A program made the position numbers and the translations under genes. A stretch of 64,000 nucleotides of DNA from a virus. Positions 23,373-60,411 of this stretch are shown here, in pieces. Location of the stretch: IMG/VR virus record IMGVR_UViG_3300012953_006686, positions 29,700 through 93,699 of that record; one strand, given 5' to 3'. The notes beneath the pieces are model-generated. The model did not search any database, was not told where the DNA came from, and was given only the letters and a program-made list of their open reading frames with translations. Each line of letters starts with the position of its first letter. Position 1 is the first letter of the stretch.

Positions 23373-24881
23373 TTAATCGCCCAACAGCTTTCTTTTAAGC
23401 TTAATTTCTGTCATTTTTTCGATGCCCTGTCTTGTACCAAGTCCGAACTTCTTCTCTATCATATCAAGATATGCATCATTTTTATAGTATTTTGTGAAGG
23501 CTTCATCACGAAACTTAAGTACCTCTGCGGCAGAAATATGTTTAGTCGGAAGGGGGGATGTTTCATATGAGTGTTGAGAGTATCCCACATAGGTCTCTGG
23601 CAGCTCCCAGCCTTCTTTAAGGGCGTCTAAATAAAGTTTAGAGCCAGGGTATGCCATGGCAGAATAAAAGTTCGCAAACTCGCAATTAAGCTCCATTGAC
23701 ATATCTAAAGTATCTTGCATGGTTTCAACAGTGTCTTCTGGGAGTCCAAAGATGTAGTTTCCAATGACGTTAATATCATAATCTTGAACTTTCTTTACCA
23801 AATCTACAATGTTAACTTCTGTAAATCTACCTTTAACTACATCTTGTCGAACTACTTTATTGCCAGATTCAATTCCGAGCGCTAACCAATTAACGCCGGC
23901 GTTCTTTAGTGTTTCTAGATATTCTTCTTTAACGGTATCAATTCTAGCATACGCCCAAATATTAAAATCATATTTTCTTTCAATTATCAAATCACACAGC
24001 TTCATAAAGTGCTTTTTGTATAAAACAAACATCTCATCTGCAATCTTAACATTTTTAATTCCCATCTCAGCAATTTGATCAAATTCAGATATGATGTATT
24101 CTGGATCCCAAAATCTAAATTTGTTTCTGCCATAGTCCCAATTTTCAAGATTGTTGTTGCCAAACGGGGCATTAATACAACAAAAGCTACACTTAAACGG
24201 GCAACCTAAACTTGTATATAAAGAAGCAAATGGCTTTCTATCATCTCCGTTAGTCATAGCGTGCCAATTAGCAGTTCTATAATTACCCATCGGAAGTAAA
24301 TCCCAGGCCATGCCAGGTAATTCGTCCACCATTTCTTCTTGAGATATTAAAGGAGCAGGCTTTGTATAACAAATATTCCCGTCTTCCCTATACCACAAGC
24401 CTGGAACATTACGCAATTGTGAAGGTTCATCCATATTGACATTTAATAATCCGGCAATAGTATGCGGGCCTTCACCTTGGCAAACAAAATCTGCTATTTC
24501 ATCGTTCATGGTTTGTCGCGATACAGCAGAAGGATGCAGTCCGACTAACAATGTCTTGTACCCAGGATAATTATTTTTAAGCTCTTGTAAAAGGTAACGT
24601 GTTCCAATCATGTTCTGAGTTGAAGCAGATGGCTGTTGTCCATAAATTACTATAACCACAAGCCTGGGGTCATATAAACTAATGGCTTCTGCAGATTGAG
24701 CGGCATCAATTCTCATTGCCTCGCAATCTAAAACTCTTGTAGAATATCCATTCTTGCGCGCATTCTGCGCCAATAGAGCCGCCCAAATTGGCGGCTCGAT
24801 AGCAGAATATTCTTTACTTAATTTTTGATAGATAATTGGGGCGCCGTTAGGGTGCACAAATAATACGTCTAATTTACTCAT
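23373..24881 (-). CDS. Cobalamin-dependent radical SAM enzyme
   Basis: N-terminal B12-binding domain (EPPIW, GLHPS, GEG), GCPFKCSFC, GIESG and YPGSKLY. Confidence 0.85.
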   Translation of the reverse strand: MSKLDVLFVHPNGAPIIYQKLSKEYSAIEPPIWAALLAQNARKNGYSTRVLDCEAMRIDAAQSAEAISLYDPRLVVIVIYGQQPSASTQNMIGTRYLLQELKNNYPGYKTLLVGLHPSAVSRQTMNDEIADFVCQGEGPHTIAGLLNVNMDEPSQLRNVPGLWYREDGNICYTKPAPLISQEEMVDELPGMAWDLLPMGNYRTANWHAMTNGDDRKPFASLYTSLGCPFKCSFCCINAPFGNNNLENWDYGRNKFRFWDPEYIISEFDQIAEMGIKNVKIADEMFVLYKKHFMKLCDLIIERKYDFNIWAYARIDTVKEEYLETLKNAGVNWLALGIESGNKVVRQDVVKGRFTEVNIVDLVKKVQDYDINVIGNYIFGLPEDTVETMQDTLDMSMELNCEFANFYSAMAYPGSKLYLDALKEGWELPETYVGYSQHSYETSPLPTKHISAAEVLKFRDEAFTKYYKNDAYLDMIEKKFGLGTRQGIEKMTEIKLKRKLLGD

Positions 24882-25866
24882 TTTTATCCCTTTGAAGATG
24901 TTTCATTTCATATGTCACTGCAGGCGATCCAAGTTTTTTTATAATTTCGTATTGCGCGGTTGGCGGCATTGAGCGGATATCATCACCAAGAGGTAAATAT
25001 GCATATGGTGTATCGGTAGATTCAAATTGGGATTTCCACTTGCGAGACCACAATGTATCGGCTTTTTTCCACTGAGACTTTACATCTAAATTAATTTGTA
25101 GTTCTTCTTTCCAAGTGGCTTTCTTATAGGTTTTGTTGTATAATGGCTCATCATGAGTTATTTGCGCGTCATGAATAATGCCATGGCTCTCGTTATCGTT
25201 TTGTTGTGTGCACATCAGAATAGGTATACCTTCTAAAAGTTGGACATTAGCATCATCTGCCTGAGCGCGGATGGCGAGGTCGGTATAAGCAAGAGCAGTA
25301 CACTCATAGTCGCAATTGATCCCACCTAATTGATCATAATATTCTCTATACATAATTGCACTATTTAAAATAAAATAGTCATCTGGAATGTGTTCACTTC
25401 CTATTCCGTTTCCTTCCTTATCTTTGTGAAAATTGATCTTATAATATTCATCAGTATAAACTTTTTCATTTTCAGTAAATTTATAAGTTACAATATTCTT
25501 TATATCGTTCCCCATTTTATCTAACCGTGCGAGGGCAGTTTCGAGCCCATATGGTACAAAAAATCCATCATCAGATATCCAAGTAATAAGTTCACCTTCT
25601 GCTATAGCGGCGCCGATGGCGTGGGCGCGGACAGGACTTCCATAATCTTTAATTACTTTAAAATTAGGCGCTAACAATAAGGCAGGCTCAATCGCGTAAG
25701 GATATGGAGTTATTAAAATTAATTCAAAAGAGCTGCTAGTAGAGCCTATAATAGAATTGTATATATCTGTCCAATACTCAGGTCTAATACCCGGCACAAG
25801 TACAGATAGCTTGGGCTTATCCGATATAATATTATAATCTATTTTTTTAGGTGGCTGTAAGTACAT
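24874..25866 (-). CDS. GT2-like glycosyltransferase, paralogue 4
   Basis: DYGSPVRAH, SDDG and DLAIRAQ; close duplicate of the next gene. Confidence 0.75.
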   Translation of the reverse strand: MYLQPPKKIDYNIISDKPKLSVLVPGIRPEYWTDIYNSIIGSTSSSFELILITPYPYAIEPALLLAPNFKVIKDYGSPVRAHAIGAAIAEGELITWISDDGFFVPYGLETALARLDKMGNDIKNIVTYKFTENEKVYTDEYYKINFHKDKEGNGIGSEHIPDDYFILNSAIMYREYYDQLGGINCDYECTALAYTDLAIRAQADDANVQLLEGIPILMCTQQNDNESHGIIHDAQITHDEPLYNKTYKKATWKEELQINLDVKSQWKKADTLWSRKWKSQFESTDTPYAYLPLGDDIRSMPPTAQYEIIKKLGSPAVTYEMKHLQRDKNE

Positions 25867-25878
25867 GCTCTATTATGA

Positions 25879-26877
25879 TTATGATAATTTTGTCAAGGCT
25901 GAAAGTTTTTCGTTCAAGGTTGCCAGTTTTGCGCTAGCGTGTTTTACGATTTTTGCAGCCATCGCGATGCCGATAGTGTGATATGAATACATTCCGTCTG
26001 TTCCGTAAGCTGTTGCATGCTCAATTCTTTTTTTGATAATTGGCTCATATTTACGGGGCCATGCAAGAGGAGCAGATTTCCAATTGTTTAACTTTAAATT
26101 AATTTTTATATTATCTCGCCACGTTGACGATTTATAGGTTTTAGCGTAAAGAGGCTCATCATGGGTTTGCTGGGCACTTTCTACGTGCGTGTGTCTATTA
26201 TCTCCAGGCGTAAACTGACCACACATTAAAATAGGGGGACCATCGACCAATTCTACACGTGCTCCATCAAATTGGGCACGAATAGCAAAGTCAGTATATG
26301 CCATGGCAGTTCCTTCATAAGAGCAGTCAATTCCTCCTAATTCTTCATAATATGCGCGATGCATAAGGCAACAATTAAAAATATAATAATCATCTGGAAT
26401 ATGCTCGCTTCCTATTCCATTTCCTTCTTTATCTTGATGAAAATTGATCTTATAGTATTCATCAGTATAAACTTTTTCATTTTCAGTAAATTTATAAGTT
26501 ACAATATTTTTTATATCACCCCCCATTTTGCCTAACTGTGCAAGAGCGGTTTCTAATCCTAATGGTGCTATAACTCCATCATCAGCGATCCAAGTAATAA
26601 ATTTTCCTTCTGCCAAAGAGGCGCCGATGGCATGCGCTCGGACTGGTGATCCATAATCTTTAACAATCTTAATATTTGTACACCACCAAAACCAAGGCGG
26701 AATATCATAGCCATTTGGAGTTATAATGATAAGTTCAAATGATCGAGATGTTGAAGCTACTAGAGAGTTATAAACGTTAGTCCACTTTTCAGGGTGTATT
26801 GCCGGCATAATTATAGACAACTCGGGCTTGTCTTTGGTTATATTGTACTCTTCATGTGTGGGGGGTCGTAAATACAT
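25879..26877 (-). CDS. GT2-like glycosyltransferase, paralogue 5
   Basis: DYGSPVRAH, ADDG, GGIDCSYE and DFAIRAQ. Confidence 0.75.
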   Translation of the reverse strand: MYLRPPTHEEYNITKDKPELSIIMPAIHPEKWTNVYNSLVASTSRSFELIIITPNGYDIPPWFWWCTNIKIVKDYGSPVRAHAIGASLAEGKFITWIADDGVIAPLGLETALAQLGKMGGDIKNIVTYKFTENEKVYTDEYYKINFHQDKEGNGIGSEHIPDDYYIFNCCLMHRAYYEELGGIDCSYEGTAMAYTDFAIRAQFDGARVELVDGPPILMCGQFTPGDNRHTHVESAQQTHDEPLYAKTYKSSTWRDNIKINLKLNNWKSAPLAWPRKYEPIIKKRIEHATAYGTDGMYSYHTIGIAMAAKIVKHASAKLATLNEKLSALTKLS

Positions 26878-49902: not shown

Positions 49903-50223
49903 TTAAATAAAATTCATAGCAAAAAGAACAGCGCCCATAGCAAATTGGACAACTGCAAATATTGTAACAGCTTTTGTCTTAAATGTTCTTAAATTTTCTA
50001 ATTCTCTTAGAGCATATTTTATTTGAGAAGGCGAGGCTACCTCGTCAATTTTGTCTTTCCATGCCCTTATTTCTTCTAAGCGATCTTCTTTGGCTTTAAT
50101 TTTAGTAATTTGTTCTTTTACTAATTGTAATTCCGCCCGCATACTTTCAATGCCGGTGTTAAGAGTTTCTAGCTGTTGTAATACTAGCTTAGAGTATGTT
50201 TCCCATCCTTGATCGCTTGGCAT
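49903..50223 (-). CDS. Coiled-coil protein with C-terminal TM anchor
   Basis: Heptad pattern; AVTIFAVVQFAMGAVLFAM tail. Confidence 0.7.
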   Translation of the reverse strand: MPSDQGWETYSKLVLQQLETLNTGIESMRAELQLVKEQITKIKAKEDRLEEIRAWKDKIDEVASPSQIKYALRELENLRTFKTKAVTIFAVVQFAMGAVLFAMNFI

Positions 50224-50226
50224 TTT

Positions 50227-52596
50227 TTATAATCCGTAAATGTTATATTCCCATAAACAAACCAAATTAACTTCAACCTGATTTGCATTTGGATGTACAC
50301 TAACACCAACTACCTCACCAGCTGAATAATGATTAGAGCCAGTAAAAGTAAATACTGTTGTAGTAGATGCTGCGTTTGGACAACTAACAGTTTGTGTTTC
50401 TATTAGAACACCTTGTTCATTCATGTTAATATCGCCGTTCCCATTAGTTGCTTTAAAAAGCGCAATGCTTACATTTCCATTTTGAGAACCAGAGGGTCTA
50501 TAATAAACTCTCTTAAGTTGTCCTGAAAATGGCACAATCATTTGATTAATATAAGTTGCATTATTTGGCGCGTTAGCCTCACTAAGATTATAAAAAGGTA
50601 TAAATTTCATAGTTGTAGCTGTTGTATTATAAGCGTGCCTTGTTGGAAAAAACTGATGACCCATTACACTGCCGGAAACACTAAAACTTCCGGTTATTCT
50701 GGTTCTGTCGCCAGTATTCTTTCCAAGCGTGGCCCCTCGGGCTGTCTCAAAAGTGCTAGAACTTAAAGTAGTAAACTGACCAGTTGATTGATTAGTTGCA
50801 CCAACTGTAGTTCCATCAATCGCACCGCCGCGAAGATCAACCGTAGTTGCAATTCCTAAATCTGCAATTGTGCGGCCTGCATTTGTCCAGTTGGTATTCA
50901 TCTTAGAAATAGCAAGTCCGCCATCCCAGTGTAATCCATATTTCGTAGCCGTTCCAACCAAAAGACTAGAGCCGCTTAAGCCCGAAGAAGCAGAAAGTGC
51001 TCCATCGGCGCCGATCTTTAACACAGTGCTGTCGCTGTTATTTCTAACCTGAACTTGTGTAGTGCTATCGTTTTCGCCTAACTTTAAGCGTATGTGCTTG
51101 TCGGTAGCATTGCAATCGATAATAAGATGCCCTGTTTGGTTTTTAATAACACTATTAGCAGAATCATGAAATAATAATAAATCTTCCCCAGCACCAATTC
51201 GAATATATTGATTGTCTTTGCTGACCTTTAATCCTTGTGACGCTGTTAAATTGGCAGTAAGTAAATTATATGATGCGGATAGTACAGAGCCTGTAACTGA
51301 CTGAGCAGTGATGCCTTTTTGTGCATCATAAACTACAGCCTTTGAAGCGACAGCGCTTCCCGCAGATGCACCATCGACATAACCAATTTCTGTATCAGAG
51401 AGTGCAGATAGAGTACTTAATTTGGCGGCTGTAACATTACTATCGGCGCCGTCAAGTTTATTGAGTTCCGCTGCTGTAGATGATACATTAGTTCCACCTA
51501 AATTAAGTGTATTAATCCAAATTTTTCCGTTGTTCTGCCAACCATAAGCACCTACTTGTATAGAGCTTCCGGTTATACCAGCCGATGAGCTAAGGCTCGC
51601 TGTCGCAACTAAAGCTCCAAATGTGCCAGCTACCGCAGCTGCAGCTCCAATCACAACACCGTCAAGATTTCCTCCATTGATATCTGCAGTCGTAACAGTT
51701 CCTAAATCTGCAACTGTTCTGCCGGCGTTTGTCCAGTTAGTATTCATTTTGGAGATGGCTAAGCCGCCATCCCAATGTAGTCCATATTTTGTAGCCGTAC
51801 CGACTATAAGACTAGAACCACTTAAGCCAAGAGAAGCAGATACCCTTCCTGCTACTGTTAAGAGAGAGCCATCAAAAGTTAAATTAGATTCAACGGTAGC
51901 TTCATCACTATCTTTAAAAGTTGCAACACCATTAGCAGTCGAACCATCCCAAGATATTCCACCGCCACCAGAAGTTAGATCTGTTTCACTAATTTCATCA
52001 GAAATCCAATAAAGTTTTCCGTCTGATTTGACATAGAGAATTCCACCATCTCCATCGCTTGGTGCTGAAGGAGAACTTACTTCTCCGGAGACGTGAACGG
52101 CGCCAGCGACTTCTAATTTTTGATCGGGATCTGAAACGCCGATACCAACGTTGTCTCCCAAAATGGACATCTTGGTATTACCGCCGGTTTTAAACAAGAA
52201 TCTGTCGGAGCCATTATCATAATCAATCTGCCCTTCATCATTATCAGCAACAGAACCAAATATAAGAGAGCCACCATAAGCATTGGCAGACTGAAAATGT
52301 ATTTTAGGTTTTTCGCTAGACTCTAGAACTAAAAGTGTCCCATCAGCTGCCGAAATTGTTCCTGCCGATCCGTCCTTGAGATGAAGCTGTGCTTCTGGAC
52401 TGGTTGTTCCTATGCCCACTTCACCAGCTAAAACTGTAGCTGACGCAGATACACTAGTGTTGGTAATCTGAAGTCTAGGCAAGCGATTCGTTCGAAAGAT
52501 AATAGAGTCATATCCAAAATCAACTTGAGTATCTTCATCGTCCTCGTTTAAAAGATCTCCAACGTGCAAAGAGCCTGTGGTTGAATTATATGCCAT
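50227..52596 (-). CDS. Tail-fibre/spike-like virion protein with internal duplication
   Basis: G/S/T/A-rich, with VGIGTTSP..LH and VGIGVSDP..KLEV fibre repeats; duplicated ~55-aa block. Confidence 0.7.
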   Translation of the reverse strand: MAYNSTTGSLHVGDLLNEDDEDTQVDFGYDSIIFRTNRLPRLQITNTSVSASATVLAGEVGIGTTSPEAQLHLKDGSAGTISAADGTLLVLESSEKPKIHFQSANAYGGSLIFGSVADNDEGQIDYDNGSDRFLFKTGGNTKMSILGDNVGIGVSDPDQKLEVAGAVHVSGEVSSPSAPSDGDGGILYVKSDGKLYWISDEISETDLTSGGGGISWDGSTANGVATFKDSDEATVESNLTFDGSLLTVAGRVSASLGLSGSSLIVGTATKYGLHWDGGLAISKMNTNWTNAGRTVADLGTVTTADINGGNLDGVVIGAAAAVAGTFGALVATASLSSSAGITGSSIQVGAYGWQNNGKIWINTLNLGGTNVSSTAAELNKLDGADSNVTAAKLSTLSALSDTEIGYVDGASAGSAVASKAVVYDAQKGITAQSVTGSVLSASYNLLTANLTASQGLKVSKDNQYIRIGAGEDLLLFHDSANSVIKNQTGHLIIDCNATDKHIRLKLGENDSTTQVQVRNNSDSTVLKIGADGALSASSGLSGSSLLVGTATKYGLHWDGGLAISKMNTNWTNAGRTIADLGIATTVDLRGGAIDGTTVGATNQSTGQFTTLSSSTFETARGATLGKNTGDRTRITGSFSVSGSVMGHQFFPTRHAYNTTATTMKFIPFYNLSEANAPNNATYINQMIVPFSGQLKRVYYRPSGSQNGNVSIALFKATNGNGDINMNEQGVLIETQTVSCPNAASTTTVFTFTGSNHYSAGEVVGVSVHPNANQVEVNLVCLWEYNIYGL

Positions 52597-52630: not shown

Positions 52631-53038
52631 TCACTTATCTTCCGAACTTATTGATTTTTGAAATTTAGTCTTAACTTTATCTCCGACAGGAATTGGCTCA
52701 CCATCACCATCAATCCTTACAAATGTCATATCAGTTGTTAATACTGTTCTTTGAGAGCCGTTATATACGCTGTGTCTTCTCGCTTCAAGATGAATTGTAA
52801 TAGAGGTTTGACCAACTGCCCTAACTTCTCCGTAGATCTTAATTATCTGTCCAGGTCTCACCGGCTTATTAAAAATTACTTCAGAAATTCTTTTTGTGAC
52901 CATTCTCGGAGTATCGCAAGCCTGACACGCAAACGCAGCACCAGCTTCATCTAGCCAAGCTAACATCGTACCACCAAACAAATTGCCGTGATAGCCAACG
53001 TTTGCTGCTTTACAAAAATGAGTTGAGATTAATTCCAT
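52631..53038 (-). CDS. Hot-dog acyl-CoA thioesterase (YciA-like)
   Basis: HGNLFGGTMLAWLDEAG, FNKPV and VGQTSI. Confidence 0.88.
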   Translation of the reverse strand: MELISTHFCKAANVGYHGNLFGGTMLAWLDEAGAAFACQACDTPRMVTKRISEVIFNKPVRPGQIIKIYGEVRAVGQTSITIHLEARRHSVYNGSQRTVLTTDMTFVRIDGDGEPIPVGDKVKTKFQKSISSEDK

Positions 53039-53121
53039 TAAGCACTCTTATCGGCTGGTTTGTTTTTTAAAAACCAACTATACCACAGTGAACCAAAACC
53101 ATATACATATCTTGCGTGCAT
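53038..53121 (-). CDS. 27-aa microprotein coupled at both ends
   Basis: MHARYVYGFGSLWYSWFLKNKPADKSA; TAATG overlaps with both flanking genes. Confidence 0.45.
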   Translation of the reverse strand: MHARYVYGFGSLWYSWFLKNKPADKSA

Positions 53122-54311
53122 TATTTACCTCTTATATAACTATGCAACTCTTCATCAGAAACTTCATTCTTTCGAGGATTATAATCTTTAATATGTTGTA
53201 GTAGATTCTGATTATTAGGATTAAGAAGCACTTTTGGAGAAATATTGCCTTGCATACGAGCATTTAATATGAACGCAAGGTAAGCATCACTTATGGTAAA
53301 AGCTTTTTTTTTAACTTTCACATTGAGATTCTCATATATTCCTCTCTTAAATAATCCGAGATCAACGATAACGAAATCTTTAGTATCTGGGCGCCTCATA
53401 ACATTCTTTATGTGCACATCTTTAGGGCGCCAGCCTTTATCTTGCATAAAGTACTTCATCGCAGCCATTAGTCCTTCAGCCTCTGGGAATAAATCTTCCA
53501 CCGCTTTAAAAGTAGGTCCAGCCCACAGATCTCGATCAGTTTCTTCGTCTCCCGGCTCTGGCTGGTGAACAGGAACAACTTGTTTGTCAAAATAATATAA
53601 AACAGTATCTGTTAGTGCATCCTCAAAAGAACTTTTTACTGCGGGACTTTGAAAATTTATCTGTTTGGCTGTCTCCGTAGCCACAGTGTAGATAACGCTT
53701 TGAACATCTCCTCCGTGTGATATTTTGGTAACGGCATTTATAACATTTGCTACAATCTGATCGCGATTGACTAAAAATTCACGCATTTGATCTAATATTC
53801 GATTATTTTGAAGAGCATATTTCGTTATTTCTGCTACCGCCTCTGGATTTTTTAAAATTTTATCTTTTTTAATCGATGCGGTAGGTGCATCCTGCGCTGC
53901 AAAAAGATCTTGTGCTGTTTGCGGATCGAGAGGCTCAAGCAACTCCATTAAAATTATAGTGCTATCACCGCCAGTTATAAGTTTTTTAACATCTGGTAAA
54001 TACTTAGCGTATTTTTCTGGCATAAAGGCTTTTTCATCCATAGCAAACTTGTAGTTTTCTATTTCGCGAGCGTTGTCAGCCGGCACAACTTTAGCCGCTA
54101 ATCTTTCGCCAGTTCTGCTATTTTCAATTTCATATACAACGCCAAAAACGCCACGACCAAGCTCTCTGCGAACAGAAAACCCCATTGATTTTAAGAGAGC
54201 TTGAGCATCTCTTTGTCGATTTTGCTGACGAAGAAGGTGCGACGGCACTGCACCAGTTGCGTCTGTTTCTTCATTTACAAACTTCCGCCAATTTTCCATT
54301 AAGAGTTTCAT
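53121..54311 (-). CDS. Protein-kinase-like enzyme with ENW leader
   Basis: LGRGVFGVVY, LAAK, helix-C Glu, MELL, DVHIKN and IVDLG. Confidence 0.8.
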   Translation of the reverse strand: MKLLMENWRKFVNEETDATGAVPSHLLRQQNRQRDAQALLKSMGFSVRRELGRGVFGVVYEIENSRTGERLAAKVVPADNAREIENYKFAMDEKAFMPEKYAKYLPDVKKLITGGDSTIILMELLEPLDPQTAQDLFAAQDAPTASIKKDKILKNPEAVAEITKYALQNNRILDQMREFLVNRDQIVANVINAVTKISHGGDVQSVIYTVATETAKQINFQSPAVKSSFEDALTDTVLYYFDKQVVPVHQPEPGDEETDRDLWAGPTFKAVEDLFPEAEGLMAAMKYFMQDKGWRPKDVHIKNVMRRPDTKDFVIVDLGLFKRGIYENLNVKVKKKAFTISDAYLAFILNARMQGNISPKVLLNPNNQNLLQHIKDYNPRKNEVSDEELHSYIRGK

Positions 54312-54715
54312 TCTTCAGAATCTCCTGAATTGATAGTATCAACCAGCATCGCCATATGATACCAATTAAGTGAGACTTGTTCAGCATCAACATTTCCCTT
54401 TTCTATAGCATCTGCCAATAACAAAAACATTCCCCTAAATCTCTCACGATTTTCATCTGACACCTCTTCTAACGCTTTGGCAAAGCTACTAGTATACCAA
54501 GCAGGTGAAGGTGCAAAGTCTTGTGGGTGTATGCCTTTAGCGCCCATACGCAGCCATTTTGGTAAATCATCTAGGCTGACTTTTGCATGAATATGTCCTA
54601 TTTTTTTCGTATCCTTTAAAAAATTCTTAAAATAGCTATGAACCCAATCAATATCATCCATTTGCTGGCTTCCTTCTGCGAGGTATTTGTGCCAATTTTC
54701 AAGTAGGAGTTTCAT
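54308..54715 (-). CDS. ENW-leader hypothetical protein
   Basis: Starts MKLLLENWHKYLAE. Confidence 0.75.
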   Translation of the reverse strand: MKLLLENWHKYLAEGSQQMDDIDWVHSYFKNFLKDTKKIGHIHAKVSLDDLPKWLRMGAKGIHPQDFAPSPAWYTSSFAKALEEVSDENRERFRGMFLLLADAIEKGNVDAEQVSLNWYHMAMLVDTINSGDSEE

Positions 54716-55329
54716 ATATTAGCCCCTTTAAAGACAACACCTTTCCACTCTATATCATCTACACCCCAATAATCATGATTACCCAGTCTGCCTAGAGCAT
54801 CCCACTTTTTAAGAAATAAATTGACTGCCATGGCATCATATAGAGGAATTCCAAAAACACTATTGAGTGGTGCTCCGTTGAAGTATTCTGTAGATAATTC
54901 TGCAGGTGTTATAGCTTCAATAGAGTCCATAAATTGTTGGGCAGTTTGACCACCTGCACCTTCTCCATATTTGTGAGACAAATATTTTCCAATTTTGTCA
55001 AATTCGCTTCCTTCTTTGGGTACTTTAGAGCTTTTGTCTCCAGATTGTGGGTGACTTGGATCCATTTTAGCAAACCAAAAAACAGAAGCAGTCCCAGGTC
55101 CGCTGGCGCTTATTCCATCAAAAGGTAAATACATTCCCTTTGTCCAATCGCCAGATCCAGTTCCAGTGCTCCTATAAAAAGCCACAGGACCATCGAGAGT
55201 TTTTACAATGACAATATGACGATCGTCTTCGGTAAGAAATTCATCTATTATAATAGAACCCAAGTTAAATTTATCTTCAACTGTTTCTTCGGTCAAATAC
55301 TTCCGCCAATTTTCCATTAAGAGTTTCAT
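54712..55329 (-). CDS. ENW-leader hypothetical protein
   Basis: Starts MKLLMENWRKYLTEE at 55329; FYRSTGTGSG..W...YLPFDG core. Confidence 0.75.
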   Translation of the reverse strand: MKLLMENWRKYLTEETVEDKFNLGSIIIDEFLTEDDRHIVIVKTLDGPVAFYRSTGTGSGDWTKGMYLPFDGISASGPGTASVFWFAKMDPSHPQSGDKSSKVPKEGSEFDKIGKYLSHKYGEGAGGQTAQQFMDSIEAITPAELSTEYFNGAPLNSVFGIPLYDAMAVNLFLKKWDALGRLGNHDYWGVDDIEWKGVVFKGANI

Positions 55330-55988
55330 TTTTGTTTTCTCCACTCTTCCTGCCCAGTTGATAGATTTCTTATTGCTGTAATTTCTACGTTTTTTGCTGG
55401 ATCAAAAACAGAAATAGCATTTGAAGTTAAAGCTAGTTTTCCAGTTTTAGTCATTCTTCCAGGATTTGACCACCAGATTCCATCAAAACCGGCTTTTTCT
55501 AATATTTTTTTAAATTCTTGAATGCTTTGAGTCATCGGAATTGAAGTGTTAATTTTTTGAGAAGGATTATTGGGGTCTCGAACTGATTGTGGAAAATAAT
55601 GTACTAAGTGATCAATATTCATTTTTAAATATTTTCCATTAAGTTTAACTGTTAACATATATTTGCCGCCTAAAGATTTTATGTGATCCGGATCTGAAAG
55701 ATTTTTCTTATCTAATCCGAACATAGGACCAAAATAAGAATCCAAATTATATTTACCTCCACCGTGTTCTCCTTCGGCAGTGTTTGCGCCGGTTTTGGAA
55801 GGATCAAACTTTTTAAATGATCTCGAAGATACGTGTCCAGCCGTATGATCCGTTAGATTTGCAGCTCCATTTTCAGCAAGACGACCGACAATAGTATTAA
55901 GGACTTCTTGTGTATATGGTACTGTACCTCTGATGGCATTCTCATTCTCATTCAAATACTCTCGCCAATTTTCTATTAAGAGCTTCAT
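55326..55988 (-). CDS. ENW-leader ADP-ribosyltransferase-like protein (ART-PolyVal-like)
   Basis: Starts MKLLIENWREYLNE. GHxS..FKKFDPSKTG...GGG...YF and GFDGI...ISVFDP resemble ART-PolyVal. Confidence 0.5.
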   Translation of the reverse strand: MKLLIENWREYLNENENAIRGTVPYTQEVLNTIVGRLAENGAANLTDHTAGHVSSRSFKKFDPSKTGANTAEGEHGGGKYNLDSYFGPMFGLDKKNLSDPDHIKSLGGKYMLTVKLNGKYLKMNIDHLVHYFPQSVRDPNNPSQKINTSIPMTQSIQEFKKILEKAGFDGIWWSNPGRMTKTGKLALTSNAISVFDPAKNVEITAIRNLSTGQEEWRKQK

Positions 55989-58576
55989 ATAAATCTTCTC
56001 CACACCTCTCCGAGATCTTTAAGATCATCAAAGTTGCGTTGTTTCTCGGCAGGAGGCTGCCCAAGATTAATGCCATTTTTGCGAGCTTCTTCTTGTAAAG
56101 CGCCCATAAATGCAGCCGCAATTTCGTCTTCGTCATCCATATCGCCAGTGACTAATTCATAAAATTGCTCTACAAGCTTGTCAGGGGTGTCTGCGTCTAC
56201 TTTAAAAGTTATGCTATAGCGAACGTCACCCCCGGAATCTACCGCGCTTTTATTGCGGATAACAAGCCTATAATCAGTATTTAATTCTTCTCTCACGGAA
56301 CGAGTTAAGTATTCTCTGAGCATAAGCACAAACTCTCGGCGATCAACGAGATCAAACAAAATTCTTGTTTCAATGCCTAATTGTTCTGGATCAAAATCAT
56401 AAGAAATAGATGCCCACGCTTCGTAAGAGTCAGTGTAGTGTTCTCCGTCCCATTCAACATCCCACTCATAAGTATCATTGTTTAGACCATTCTCAAGTTT
56501 TTGAACCAAGCTCATATAAGCGTGCCCTTCAAAATAACCATTTTCTTTGGCGTATTGTTCTACAAGAGCTTGAAATTTATCTCGGTCATCATCCAGCGCA
56601 TCAACTCCTTTACAATAATTCTCATAGCCGTCAGCATCATAAACTACAGGTTGGTTTTCTAATCCCGGAACAAATCTGGTGTTAAACTCACAACGCCAAA
56701 TAATAACCTCACTGCCTTCAGGGCCGCCTTTATAGATTGCTCCTTTGTCTTCCTCAAATAGCGGAACAATAGCGCCCATGTCTTGGTTGTAATAGTATTC
56801 GTTTAAATAATCTGCAATAAGCCTACCTTCGGATACGTTTGGAAGCTGTTTCCATTCATCAAGCTCCCAAGTAAGCATAATTTTGCCTTCTGGGTAAATA
56901 ACATAATCGCCTTCGCCTGAATCATCTCTAACGTGAAAGTCTACCTCGCAATTAGCGTACTTTCCAGAATTCCATTTTTCTCTAACTTTGGCGCAATCAC
57001 GCTTAAGCATTTCTTCAACATCGCCAACCCACTCAGGCGGCATTTCTTCTTCTGTTTCTTTATCTTGTTCAACTTGTCCAGTAAAATCGTTCATTGGAAC
57101 ATTTGTAAGGTTTGCTAATAATTCTTTACGACCTCCATAATGCGCTGTGTCTTCGTAAGAGCCTCCATAAATTCTAAAATCATCTAAATCAACTTTGCCA
57201 CCAGATTTAGGCAAATTAGCAATAACTTCTTCTTGTTTTTGTCTTGCCCATTTTGTTACAGTACCGACAATACCAGGGATCTTGATTCCATACACATATT
57301 TTTCAGGAACTGCTACTTCTGTGCCTTGATCTTCTCCAGCGTCATACTTTTCCCAATCAAAATAGCGAAATTGCCTTAATCTTATTCGAGAAACTGGGTC
57401 TAAATCTAAGTTAGTACCATGAAGATATCGGTTTTGCTCAGTAAAAATTTCATCATACTCTTCAAGCTCTTGCTCAGCGCTTTCTATGTTGCCTGTGTTT
57501 GTTTCTGAGAGTAAGTCCTCCGTTTTCACCACATAAGCGATTGCTCCATGACCTTGTGCTTCCGCAACAGCACATTTATAGTACTCTTGTTTTGAACCAT
57601 CCCGGCTTGGAGGCGTATGACATGATGTAATCTTTTCAAAATCAGACATTCGCATGACATCAACAGGGTGTCGAGTCAAAATAATAGAATATGTATCATT
57701 TTCAAGGCCAGGAACATCTTCTCTAATTGTTTTTGAGTTATTTAACCAGTAAGTACCCATGTCAATAAACTTTGTGTCAGGCACCACTATCGGTTTTCTT
57801 GTGCGTACTGGTTTTCCGTAGCGCCTATCACCTGCATCTTGCTGATCTCTACGGTGTTGTTCTTTCTGTTTCCATGAATCTTGATCAGAATAATCCATAG
57901 CAAACGATTGTAAACGTTCGTGACCCGCGCCGCCAGCATATAACTCTAATTGGTTCAAAATTTGCTTATATCTTTTAAGTTCTTCGTCACTTAATGCATT
58001 TTCGGTCTCTCCAATAGTATATTGAAGTAAATGTTTGCCGCCAATAGCACCTTGACCTTCTTCAGGTCTATCTTTATACTTATAATCGCCAATTTTCTTT
58101 CTTATTTGCAAATATTCCTTCATAAGGATGTCTAGTTTGGCAAAATATTTACCGATTTTCATTTGGAGCTTCTTTTTTAGCATTTTGGGCGGGGGTCCAT
58201 CTCCATATATTCGTTCTACCGTGTCATCAACAGTTTTGTCGTGGTCTTCCCACTCTCTTTCAACGGAAACCAAGCCTCTTTCCCAATCAACGTCGACTTT
58301 TAGTACTTGTTCAAGCATATGAACCCACTGTCCAAGTTCAGATTGTCTATCTTTTACTGGAAATGGTATAACAAGGCGTGTTTTATCACCAAAAAGCTCA
58401 TCAAAAGCCAATACGCCCCTTGGATTATCCGCTAGTTTTTGCAAAATTGCTTCAACGCCCAGCATTTCGGAGTCAGAAATCTCCCGAAGTAATACTTCTG
58501 TTTTTAAATCGGAATTTTCCGAGATTTTTTCAAGCAAAAGTGTTGCTTTCTGTAAAATTTGCTCGTCAGTAAGCAT
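55985..58576 (-). CDS. Large acidic hypothetical protein (863 aa)
   Basis: Start MLTDEQ after SD GAAGGA; TRHPVDVMRMSD..SCH motif; C-terminus EVWRRFI. Confidence 0.8.
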   Translation of the reverse strand: MLTDEQILQKATLLLEKISENSDLKTEVLLREISDSEMLGVEAILQKLADNPRGVLAFDELFGDKTRLVIPFPVKDRQSELGQWVHMLEQVLKVDVDWERGLVSVEREWEDHDKTVDDTVERIYGDGPPPKMLKKKLQMKIGKYFAKLDILMKEYLQIRKKIGDYKYKDRPEEGQGAIGGKHLLQYTIGETENALSDEELKRYKQILNQLELYAGGAGHERLQSFAMDYSDQDSWKQKEQHRRDQQDAGDRRYGKPVRTRKPIVVPDTKFIDMGTYWLNNSKTIREDVPGLENDTYSIILTRHPVDVMRMSDFEKITSCHTPPSRDGSKQEYYKCAVAEAQGHGAIAYVVKTEDLLSETNTGNIESAEQELEEYDEIFTEQNRYLHGTNLDLDPVSRIRLRQFRYFDWEKYDAGEDQGTEVAVPEKYVYGIKIPGIVGTVTKWARQKQEEVIANLPKSGGKVDLDDFRIYGGSYEDTAHYGGRKELLANLTNVPMNDFTGQVEQDKETEEEMPPEWVGDVEEMLKRDCAKVREKWNSGKYANCEVDFHVRDDSGEGDYVIYPEGKIMLTWELDEWKQLPNVSEGRLIADYLNEYYYNQDMGAIVPLFEEDKGAIYKGGPEGSEVIIWRCEFNTRFVPGLENQPVVYDADGYENYCKGVDALDDDRDKFQALVEQYAKENGYFEGHAYMSLVQKLENGLNNDTYEWDVEWDGEHYTDSYEAWASISYDFDPEQLGIETRILFDLVDRREFVLMLREYLTRSVREELNTDYRLVIRNKSAVDSGGDVRYSITFKVDADTPDKLVEQFYELVTGDMDDEDEIAAAFMGALQEEARKNGINLGQPPAEKQRNFDDLKDLGEVWRRFI

Positions 58577-58578
58577 TT

Positions 58579-59250
58579 TTATTCCTTCATCGATTTGGAA
58601 CCGCGACATTTCCACTTTTTGCGGGATAGTGCGTTGGCACAAGGTGGATTTTTACACTTTTTGATCTTTGCAGAACGAGCGCAATAAGCATCTCCCTTAG
58701 CTGTTCCGGGCCTAATGCGGTCACCGCCATCTTTGGCTTTACCTGCTTGCCCAAATGAGCGGCACTTGCCATCTACTCTTTTGGCAGAGCGCTTTCCTTT
58801 GGATGGCTTACAGGGTTTTTTCTTTTTTTTTTCGGCTAATACCGCTTCAAGTTCTTCTTCAATGATAGCAAGAAGCTCTTGTTGTTCTTCGTCTATTGGT
58901 TCACAATTTTTAACGCGTTTGCCGGGCTTCGTAGGGCTTTTTTTGGTTTTTTTGCCAGTTTTCGCGCCAGGAGAATACCCCTTCCAACACTTACCTTCGG
59001 TTTCAAGTTCTTTTTCTTCTTGGATTCCGTATGTTTTACAGGGGTCCTGTCCACATCCACAATTTTTCTTCTCGCCTTCCTCTAATTTGTCATCATCGGT
59101 CTCGTCGAGTATCTGCTGGATGCGCTTTGCTTGACCAGCATGCATTTTAGATGCGTTTTCTAGCTCACCAACAATGGTTTTGAGTTCTTCTTCGTGTTCT
59201 TTAGTATGTGACTCAGTAAACCTTTGCCAATTTTCAAGAATTGTCTTCAT
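58579..59250 (-). CDS. ENW-leader protein with basic Cys-rich modules
   Basis: MKTILENWQRFTE; CWKGY..KNC and AYCARS...KKWKC modules. Confidence 0.75.
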   Translation of the reverse strand: MKTILENWQRFTESHTKEHEEELKTIVGELENASKMHAGQAKRIQQILDETDDDKLEEGEKKNCGCGQDPCKTYGIQEEKELETEGKCWKGYSPGAKTGKKTKKSPTKPGKRVKNCEPIDEEQQELLAIIEEELEAVLAEKKKKKPCKPSKGKRSAKRVDGKCRSFGQAGKAKDGGDRIRPGTAKGDAYCARSAKIKKCKNPPCANALSRKKWKCRGSKSMKE

Positions 59251-59689
59251 TTTTTGATATCTCCAAAGCTTTCTCCAATAAATAGATCGGAATTTCAGTA
59301 TTAGCTATATCTTTTATGTCTTCAATTGTTGCCCATTTCCAGTCATCGTGTTCGATTTGACCAGATTCTGGGTTTGGTTTGTCTACATTTACATCTCCTG
59401 TCCATATTTGAGTTAAGAAAACGTATTTTTGTGGCTTTGGTTCTCCTAGATAAGTAAGGTCTGAGACTTCGCAAGATAAATTAGCTTCTTCTTCTAATTC
59501 ACGTATAGCTCCTGCCTCTATGGATTGGTCTTCTTCATCTATATGTCCTCCTGGCATCGTCCACTGACCCTCTCGTTCATCAACGTCTGAGCGTCTAATG
59601 ATAAGAAATTGCTGCTCATCATTTAAACAAACAACAATTCCAGATGTTTTTGAGTCACCTTCGGTGAGAAATTTATCCCACTTATTCAT
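59234..59689 (-). CDS. NUDIX hydrolase with short W-leader
   Basis: WTMPGGHIDE...AIRELEEEAN Nudix box; starts MNKWDKFLTE. Confidence 0.88.
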   Translation of the reverse strand: MNKWDKFLTEGDSKTSGIVVCLNDEQQFLIIRRSDVDEREGQWTMPGGHIDEEDQSIEAGAIRELEEEANLSCEVSDLTYLGEPKPQKYVFLTQIWTGDVNVDKPNPESGQIEHDDWKWATIEDIKDIANTEIPIYLLEKALEISKNEDNS

Positions 59690-60411
59690 CTTCTACAAGC
59701 GCGCGGTTCGTCTTCAAGAGCTACACATAATTCAGCTATAGCCAAAGACATATCTAAATTTTGTATAGGAGAGACCCATATCATATTTTCTTGAACCTGT
59801 AACTCCGGGTACCTTTCTATATCTACGCCCCATAATATACCAACAATCTCCCCCTGTGTATCATATATCACAGAACCGCTACTGCCAAACCACCCATATG
59901 TATTCAACATTAACTGTGGTCCACGACCGTCTAAGTGTTCAACCCCGGCTACGTAGCCACGATATGTCATTAAACTATGCCAGGAAGGGTGACCAGAATA
60001 AGTTATACGAGTTCCAATTGAAGACATTTCGCTTCTAGGCGAATAACGAATACCTCTGCCCTCTAGCTGATTGCCCTCTCGAAGATATAAAACCGATATA
60101 TCGTGAGCAACATCTGAATAAACTAAAATCGCCGTCTCCATAGTAGAGCCATTAATAACATAATACTGCTGACCAATGCGACCATCAGCAACGTGTTGCG
60201 CTGTTAAAACTAGCTGCATATCGCGGTATTGAACAATTCCTCCGGATCCGTGACCCCTGCCGTCTGTAATCTTAACTGCGGCTTCTCTAACTTTTCTTTC
60301 ATTGCGATCAAGTCCGTCTTCAATTGAAATTGTTTGAAAATCCCCACCACCGTCAGCAATTGCTGTTGTAGAAATTGACAGTCCTAATAATAATGCTAAT
60401 AATTTTTTCAT
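59686..60411 (-). CDS. Exported trypsin-like serine protease
   Basis: Signal peptide; catalytic triad motifs LTAQHV, DISVL and GSSGS. Confidence 0.85.
   Translation of the reverse strand: MKKLLALLLGLSISTTAIADGGGDFQTISIEDGLDRNERKVREAAVKITDGRGHGSGGIVQYRDMQLVLTAQHVADGRIGQQYYVINGSTMETAILVYSDVAHDISVLYLREGNQLEGRGIRYSPRSEMSSIGTRITYSGHPSWHSLMTYRGYVAGVEHLDGRGPQLMLNTYGWFGSSGSVIYDTQGEIVGILWGVDIERYPELQVQENMIWVSPIQNLDMSLAIAELCVALEDEPRACRR

Follow-up and report, generated by a model that had tools for sequence, protein, structure and literature searches.

A repeated N-terminal leader as a putative capsid-targeting tag and recombination joint for cargo genes in marine T4-like phages

The capsid-targeting sequence (CTS) of bacteriophage T4 is reportedly carried by the internal proteins IPI, IPII and IPIII, as Mullaney and Black are said to have described in 1996. 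The subject of the present analysis is a short block of coding DNA that recurs at the 5' ends of genes in a 64,000-nucleotide (nt) stretch of virus DNA (hereafter the window), which is the right-hand 64 kb of an IMG/VR virus contig of 93.7 kb (IMGVR_UViG_3300012953_006686, ~51% complete). The block encodes an N-terminal leader peptide, or tag, on otherwise unrelated proteins (the cargo), and a leader together with its cargo gene is called a cassette. The explanation put forward as a whole, at a probability of roughly 0.7, is that the tag-coding DNA acts both as a capsid-targeting tag and as a recombination joint for cassettes.

As set out in PMC9026906, PMC3012670, PMC2839356 and PMC4122927, the T4 CTS is an N-terminal propeptide of 10–19 residues that loads internal proteins into the prohead core and is removed by gp21, T4-type head proteases cleaving after Glu; shuffling of the T-even internal protein (IP) set was proposed by Repoila et al. 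(1994), by these papers' account 'without detailing a mechanism'. T-even IP loci resemble the locus described here in having a short N-terminal peptide on otherwise unrelated proteins, a gp21-type protease and hypervariable gene sets. T4 ipIII and ipII, moreover, have 32 identical nt of CTS DNA in common, plus 15 nt upstream, and adjoin a NUDIX gene (nudE).

Promoter-early stem-loop (PeSL) cassettes are a case of modular shuffling in T4-type phages, and their authors likened PeSLs to integrons (Arbiol et al. 2010, PMC2839356; Comeau et al. 2014, PMC4122927). As at the present locus, short repeats flank accessory genes in hyperplastic regions, and homologous recombination at them is proposed to bring about insertion, deletion and replacement. 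Integrons resemble it in their tandem single-gene cassettes of unrelated function, with repeated junctions and with content and order varying among relatives. Variable modules are also exchanged in polymorphic toxin loci (CdiA-CT, Rhs), at a point marked by a conserved motif in the coding sequence. Their likeness to the present locus lies in a conserved in-frame coding junction that is at once a functional boundary and the homology for module exchange; they differ in being bacterial, and in having a long N-terminal delivery domain and a swapped C-terminal toxin with its immunity gene.

Within the window, a 32-nt block at 54281–54312 is matched exactly at 55299–55330 (wider identity 47/53 nt), a repeat that lies far beyond chance within 64 kb, and diverged copies are present at 54667–54719 and 55940–55992 (62–66% identity over 53 nt, 74–77% over 31 nt). 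An earlier reading made from the letters alone (the sequence-only reading) had noted the identical pair and the two diverged copies, and their coordinates and identity were re-derived here. An 18-nt degenerate pattern, run over the whole window, found only these four sites at 0–1 mismatch; all four leaders named in that reading are real, and a fifth copy, at 59209–59250, had been overlooked. The genes of the array are all on the minus strand, the 32-nt block being the reverse complement of gene 5' ends and coding for MKLL[LMI]ENW[RH][KE][YF], and the repeated block amounts to the first ~42 nt of five minus-strand genes. The whole 93.7-kb contig holds these five leader copies only, all inside ~6 kb. 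Leader-bearing genes and their junctions are listed here.

59209..59250, minus strand: fifth leader copy, MKTILENWQRFTES, which begins the 223-aa gene 58579–59250 (MKTILENWQRF)
55326..55988, minus strand: cassette 1, leader 55947–55988 (peptide MKLLIENWREYLNE) and 220-amino-acid (aa) cargo, gene start 55988; an ART/RES-like fold is a lead only
54712..55329, minus strand: cassette 2, leader 55288–55329 (peptide MKLLMENWRKYLTE, exact repeat 55299–55330 inside) and 205-aa cargo of no known family, gene start 55329
54308..54715, minus strand: cassette 3, leader 54674–54715 (peptide MKLLLENWHKYLAE) and 135-aa cargo of no known family, gene start 54715
53121..54311, minus strand: cassette 4, leader 54270–54311 (peptide MKLLMENWRKFVNE, exact repeat 54281–54312 inside) and 396-aa protein-kinase-like cargo, gene start 54311
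55985–55988, 55326–55329, 54712–54715 and 54308–54311, minus strand: ATGA junctions, upstream stop overlapping the next start, from open reading frame (ORF) coordinates

At these four junctions the ATGA of the leader supplies the TGA of the preceding gene, a claim of the sequence-only reading with which the ORF coordinates agree, and a GGAG-like Shine-Dalgarno sequence is present at each, within the last codons of the upstream gene. Since the cassettes overlap by 4 nt, no intergenic DNA separates them. The fifth junction is of a second type, the stop of the upstream NUDIX gene being a TGA at leader nt 15–17 (CTT GAA, codons 5–6). A leader holds TGA at nt 2–4 (+1 frame) and usually TGA at nt 15–17 (+2 frame); of 316 leader genes, 162 have an upstream ORF (50 codons or longer) that terminates at nt 2–4 and 32 have one that terminates at nt 15–17, the ATGA-overlap rate among control ORFs being 11%. 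The fourth codon reads CTA or TTA in 89% of 226 leaders (e.g. window 55318–55320), giving TAG or TAA on the antisense strand.

At least 316 unrelated cargo genes of marine viral contigs carry the 14-residue tag (consensus MKLLLENWRKYLNE), and the MKLLxENW peptide-level DNA pattern occurs in IMG/VR at no fewer than 120 loci, many with 2–6 tandem copies. Over 226 unique leaders the consensus is M-K-L-L-[LFMI]-E-N-W-R-[KEQR]-[YF]-[LIV]-[NKT]-E; positions 9–14 lie outside the search pattern and are nevertheless conserved (R9 78%, Y/F11 92%, L/I/V/M12 93%, E14 83%), and conservation ends past residue 14. The leader is predicted to fold as an amphipathic helix. Tagged cargo proteins are unrelated to one another and 66–900 aa long; a Pfam scan of 150 of them returned NUDIX (8), HAD_SAK_1 (7), Zeta_toxin/AAA_33 (3), Pkinase (2), GNAT (2), SAM lyase (1) and RNase_T (1), and most had no Pfam match. 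NUDIX, at 8/150, is the commonest Pfam cargo on full leaders elsewhere. It is highly improbable that the five genes of the window are diverged tandem paralogues of one family with the block as their best-conserved part: tandem arrangement on the same strand would suit such an origin, but the cargo has no detectable similarity, Pfam domains and lengths differ, and conservation stops abruptly past residue 14.

A search of 185,579 prokaryote genomes for the extended leader pattern gave 8 stretches only, most of them on short contigs of metagenome-assembled genomes, and the tag is therefore essentially viral. A tblastn search with the 20-aa leader against 50,697 phage records gave no relevant match, blastn and tblastn searches with the region and the 863-aa protein encoded next to the array found no related cultured phage, and a region-limited protein search with residues 1–40 returned 14 candidates only. 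Searching the open-access literature for the motif letters produced spurious matches and no paper with the motif.

The phage is a member of an uncultured marine T4-like lineage. Its closest relative, L126 (contig G001), has 92% identity in the 863-aa protein and 75–91% DNA identity over >8 kb, and G001 codes for a Peptidase_S77 (T4 gp21-type) prohead protease; G002 (203 kb, ~9 leader genes) and G004 (186 kb) are complete leader-bearing genomes with a Gp23 capsid protein, gp21 and a RecA/UvsX-family recombinase. The tag terminus is hydrophobic-x-Glu, the motif described for T4-type head proteases (position 12 L/I/V/M in 93%, E14 in 83%). In the T4 record, ipIII and ipII begin MKTYQEFIAE; the T4 CTS and the leader have M-K-x-x-x-E and a terminal [IL]-x-E in common, in a peptide too short for statistics. 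Because the relative has a gp21-type protease and the tag ends in the hydrophobic-x-Glu motif, the tag is best read as the T4-like capsid-targeting propeptide of this lineage. It would carry cargo into the prohead core, a gp21-type head protease would then remove it after [LIV]-x-E at positions 12–14, and the cargo enzymes would afterwards enter the host together with the DNA.

The other half of the explanation concerns exchange. Relatives of the 863-aa anchor gene were taken from seven IMG/VR contigs and 45 metagenome contigs. Both flanks (the 863-aa gene on one side, a 106-aa gene on the other) are present in ~40 contigs, and the cassette set or order differs in nearly every one. The flanks are conserved, with peptidase and NUDIX genes upstream and the 106-aa gene and its followers downstream; the genes between them belong to a common pool of cassette families and differ in both content and order, almost every contig having its own combination. 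Some of the arrays are as follows.

Window: [220][205][135][kinase][4HBT][fibre]
L126, L205 and L217: [230][594][197]
L215: [kinase][200][228]
L216: [kinase][4HBT][165][195]

Alignment across related contigs was the check that the sequence-only reading had set for itself, and cassette presence and absence does change with breakpoints in the leaders, in an array that is not invariant.

Breakpoints were defined as unique internal alignment ends in the first locus set, using alignments of at least 300 bp at a minimum of 80% identity (n = 233). Within −20 to +70 nt of a leader ATG lay 55 of these 233 homology end-points, against 5.0 expected at random (11-fold), and near the 1375 other gene starts lay 50, against 24.6 expected; per gene start this is 0.23 for leaders versus 0.036 for other genes. 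At leaders the end-point positions are bimodal, falling either exactly at the ATG or 24–51 nt into the leader. Indels were called clean where one genome had 150 or more additional nt; of the pairwise calls, 9 of 14 for the first locus set and 13 of 76 for the anchored set ran from leader to leader. In these leader-to-leader indels the flanking alignments overlap by 28–52 nt on the single leader of the shorter genome, whereas for indels bounded by no leader the overlap is −29 to +30 nt, in most cases a gap. Judged from the alignments, the 28–52-nt overlap is the signature of homologous crossover between direct repeats.

Single cases were resolved in finer detail. L119 and L045 are 99.7% identical, with one 395-nt cassette absent exactly and the junction in a 25-nt run common to both leaders. 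A nested series is formed by L027 and L040, L063 and L048 (X-[201], X-[146]-[201], X-[146]-[124]-[116]-[201]), and L128 and L184, at 97% identity, have a 779-nt difference. Compared with L216, the window has three extra cassettes (55988 to 54311, 1677 nt) between two leaders, with a 45-nt overlap. Three-way comparisons (n = 15) switched from the upstream to the downstream partner at informative sites within leader nt 1–45 in 14 cases, and in at least 4 of the 14 there were upstream-type sites inside the leader itself. In the 15th (L206/L209, 2272-nt difference) the left edge has just ATGA in common, a difference best explained by a third, L128-like partner. Elsewhere between L206 and L209 a chimeric leader was found, the clearest case of upstream-type sites inside a leader: the kinase gene of L206 starts with the first 14 nt of a variant leader (MQNLF...), followed by the remainder of the kinase leader, a 569-nt cassette is lost, the flanks are 98.8% identical, and the crossover falls in a 20-nt identical run. 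Separately, the NUDIX-like cargo of L119 (an IMG/VR contig) was seen to have a 1-nt loss in an A-run ~50 nt past the leader that shifts the frame, either decay or a homopolymer assembly error.

The breakpoint excess, the overlaps, the chimeric leader and the L216 comparison back the proposal of the sequence-only reading that recombination between leader repeats inserts, deletes and swaps cargo, and reshuffling of the array by leader-to-leader recombination is supported by these comparisons. Each cassette opens with the same 25–45 nt of near-identical in-frame DNA, start codon included, and, because every cassette shares this patch, general recombination of the phage could cross over between any two leaders, in one genome or between co-infecting relatives. 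On the comparative evidence, whole cassettes are deleted, inserted, replaced or reordered by such a crossover, and the genes always stay intact and overlapping. T4 itself recombines readily at short homologies, and ipIII was lost in 3/5 laboratory lineages. Recombination may be a by-product of the common tag and not its purpose.

Several points weigh against the combined explanation. On the packaging side, the residue following E14 is variable, where T4 CTS cleavage sites are followed by Ala; the contig of the window (51% complete) is without protease, capsid and recombinase genes; and packaging and cleavage are inferred. On the exchange side, several indels stop at gene borders with no second leader, such as the 468 extra nt in L126, the 466 extra nt in L099 and, by the 106-aa gene, the array's right edge. 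Breakpoints at gene borders with little or no repeat were seen where L126 has [417][154] in place of the 223-aa gene, in the single-gene indels (L126 versus L127, L099 versus L053) and at the right edge of the island. Alignment ends at leaders are partly to be expected, because all leaders are alike and BLAST alignments run through them; selection for intact genes would likewise put surviving junctions at gene borders; and some key variants (L119, L206, L128) come from single metagenome assemblies.

Part of this would be accounted for if the leader were only a peptide tag, and the variation arose by illegitimate recombination or by crossovers in flank genes, with selection afterwards keeping the intact genes; that breakpoints coincide with leaders would then be a by-product of leader conservation and the want of intergenic DNA. 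The gene-boundary indels that lack a second leader, an island right edge that is not a leader, and alignments that of necessity run through any leader all speak for such an origin. It is nonetheless considered unlikely: leader-to-leader events always have the 28–52-nt overlap where no-leader events have gaps or short overlaps; in at least four cases, including a clearly chimeric one, sites of the upstream type are found within the leader ahead of the switch; and illegitimate joining would be very unlikely to give an exact in-frame join that leaves no intergenic room.

Metagenome assembly could also have produced leader-to-leader indels, by repeat collapse or strain chimeras, and repeats are classic mis-join sites, with several key variants known from one contig each. 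The chance that the indels are artefacts of this kind is nevertheless rated as very small. The identical runs are just 20–33 nt. Runs of that length are shorter than the final k-mers of common assemblers. The same structures were also recovered in independent assemblies (L027/L040, L216/L182, L126/L205/L217, L025/L031), and arrays differ between contigs too divergent for strain chimeras.

At the DNA level, synonymous codons in leader nt 4–30 are far more uniform than background (L3 CTC 51% versus 9%, L5 CTT 90% versus 25%, R9 CGA 57% versus 14%). For leaders with unrelated cargo, synonymous codon identity is 0.69 within a locus versus 0.59 between loci (permutation p < 0.001), a likeness that fits homogenisation by exchange and is no proof of selection for recombination. 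The nucleotide sequence of the leader, beyond its peptide, might be kept by selection as a self-contained cassette joint for in-frame swaps of capsid-delivered effectors, its parts being the start codon, stops for both other frames, an antisense stop at codon 4 and the 25–45-nt homology patch; this stronger claim is held as doubtful, if possible.

Position-specific conservation of synonymous codons in nt 4–30 would also be expected were the block chiefly a regulatory element of RNA or DNA (a translational operator, an enhancer or a coupling hairpin) rather than a signal at the peptide level. Little likelihood is attached to this, since amino-acid substitutions are conservative (L/F/M/I at 5, Y/F at 11, L/I/V at 12), variant leaders hold ENWRK[YF] at an altered distance from the ATG (MSDKMLMENW, MQNLFENW), and the folding energy is −5.8 versus −6.1 kcal/mol in recoded controls, with no co-occurrence of CTCC and Shine-Dalgarno sequence. 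Two specific candidates were tried and rejected. A hairpin masking the Shine-Dalgarno sequence as the cause of the CTC-CTA codons fails on that same comparison, folding being no stronger than with synonymous recoding, and on the lack of co-occurrence of CTCC and GGAG. The putative promoter motif CTATTTA has one copy 35 nt upstream of gene 59250 and is not enriched, with 9 copies on the coding strand of the window versus 7.6 expected.

Compared with the T4 IP loci, the tag is longer (14 residues with an ENW core, against 10 in the T4 CTS), no significant homology being demonstrable at such length. T4 genes are parted by a promoter-bearing spacer (115 nt), whereas here they abut at ATGA; T4 cargo consists of small basic proteins, whereas here it is mostly enzymes of 66–900 aa, with up to ~9 tagged genes per array. 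Crossovers were mapped within the tag-coding DNA here, where packaging and cleavage are predicted from sequence. As would be expected of modular shuffling of the PeSL and T-even IP-locus kind, indel and replacement breakpoints of close relatives map to the short repeats at the edges of accessory genes. A PeSL, however, is an intergenic promoter with a hairpin, and the present repeat is a coding 5' end with no spacer and no stable fold. The difference from T-even IP loci and PeSLs is that here the tag-coding DNA itself forms the recombining repeat, and the arrays have no spacers.

The sequence-only reading had called the locus a recombinase-free, integron-like array. The first part of that stands as regards an integrase, PF00589 (tyrosine integrase) having no match in the contig of the window (G000), G001, G002 and G004 while 14/14 control genomes matched. 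The likeness to integrons holds as an analogy only: no attC sites lie between the cassettes, since their junction consists of a direct repeat in coding DNA that has no stable fold. Exchange presumably proceeds via general homologous recombination.

The remaining genes of the locus are given below, in the order in which they are met on the minus strand.

59686–60411: trypsin-like serine peptidase, N-terminus resembling a signal peptide, second gene upstream of the array, kept in all relatives
59234..59689, minus strand: NUDIX hydrolase gene, its stop (59234–59236) inside the leader of the next gene
55985..58576, minus strand: 863-aa gene without a leader and of no known family, left anchor of the variable array in all relatives, its stop forming the first ATGA junction
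52631–53038, minus strand: 4HBT thioesterase without a leader, variable, right end of the island
50227–52596, minus strand: 789-aa fibre-like gene without a leader, variable, right end of the island

The NUDIX gene lies directly upstream of the leader array (compare T4 nudE beside e-ipIII-ipII, T4 record L226:3417–5491), and its own N-terminus, MNKWDKFLTE, resembles a shortened leader. A 40%-identical homologue of the 863-aa protein in L131 (L131:9521–12325) begins with the variant leader MKDWLQDWNKFLNEE, and for that reason the 863-aa anchor protein may itself be packaged.

The sole family match among the tagged cargo of the window is that of the 396-aa protein to a protein-kinase N-lobe, slightly under the Pfam cut-off, and PDB sequence searches with three cargo proteins gave weak kinase N-lobe matches only. 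For the 220-aa cargo, ESM-Atlas structural neighbours have ART-PolyVal and RES (NAD-using) domains at template modelling (TM) scores of 0.45–0.56; an AlphaFold2 model from a 5-sequence alignment had a mean predicted local distance difference test (pLDDT) score of 36.6 and was unusable. The last ~62 aa of the 396-aa kinase-like cargo (window 53121–53320) form a separate module, which has 50% identity with the C-terminal end of an unrelated family of 220-aa leader proteins in relatives (L127:7786–8448). Domains are therefore shuffled inside cargo proteins too, besides between cassettes.

At the right end of the island, homology to relatives picks up again at 50223, the ATG of the conserved 106-aa gene. 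The 789-aa fibre-like gene has an internal 159-nt repeat at 80% identity (50836–50994 and 51682–51840); in relatives it ranges from 706 to 1135 aa and trades places with the 4HBT gene. Elsewhere in the window, two adjoining ~330-aa genes at 24874–26877 form a pair of tandem paralogues, in which a stretch of 300 nt is directly repeated at 77% identity (25211–25510, 26222–26521).

Provided that the tag does serve in capsid loading, these abundant ocean phages are equipped with a large and fast-changing enzyme kit that is delivered with their DNA, with kinases, NUDIX hydrolases, a SAM lyase and possible ADP-ribosyltransferases among its members. The crossovers mapped in the tag-coding DNA supply a concrete mechanism for reshuffling such a kit. 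Should the leader DNA in addition prove to be kept as a cassette joint, the array would be the equivalent of an integron for injected proteins, but one that works without an integrase. The leader also offers a simple sequence handle by which candidate injected effectors may be catalogued in metagenomes.

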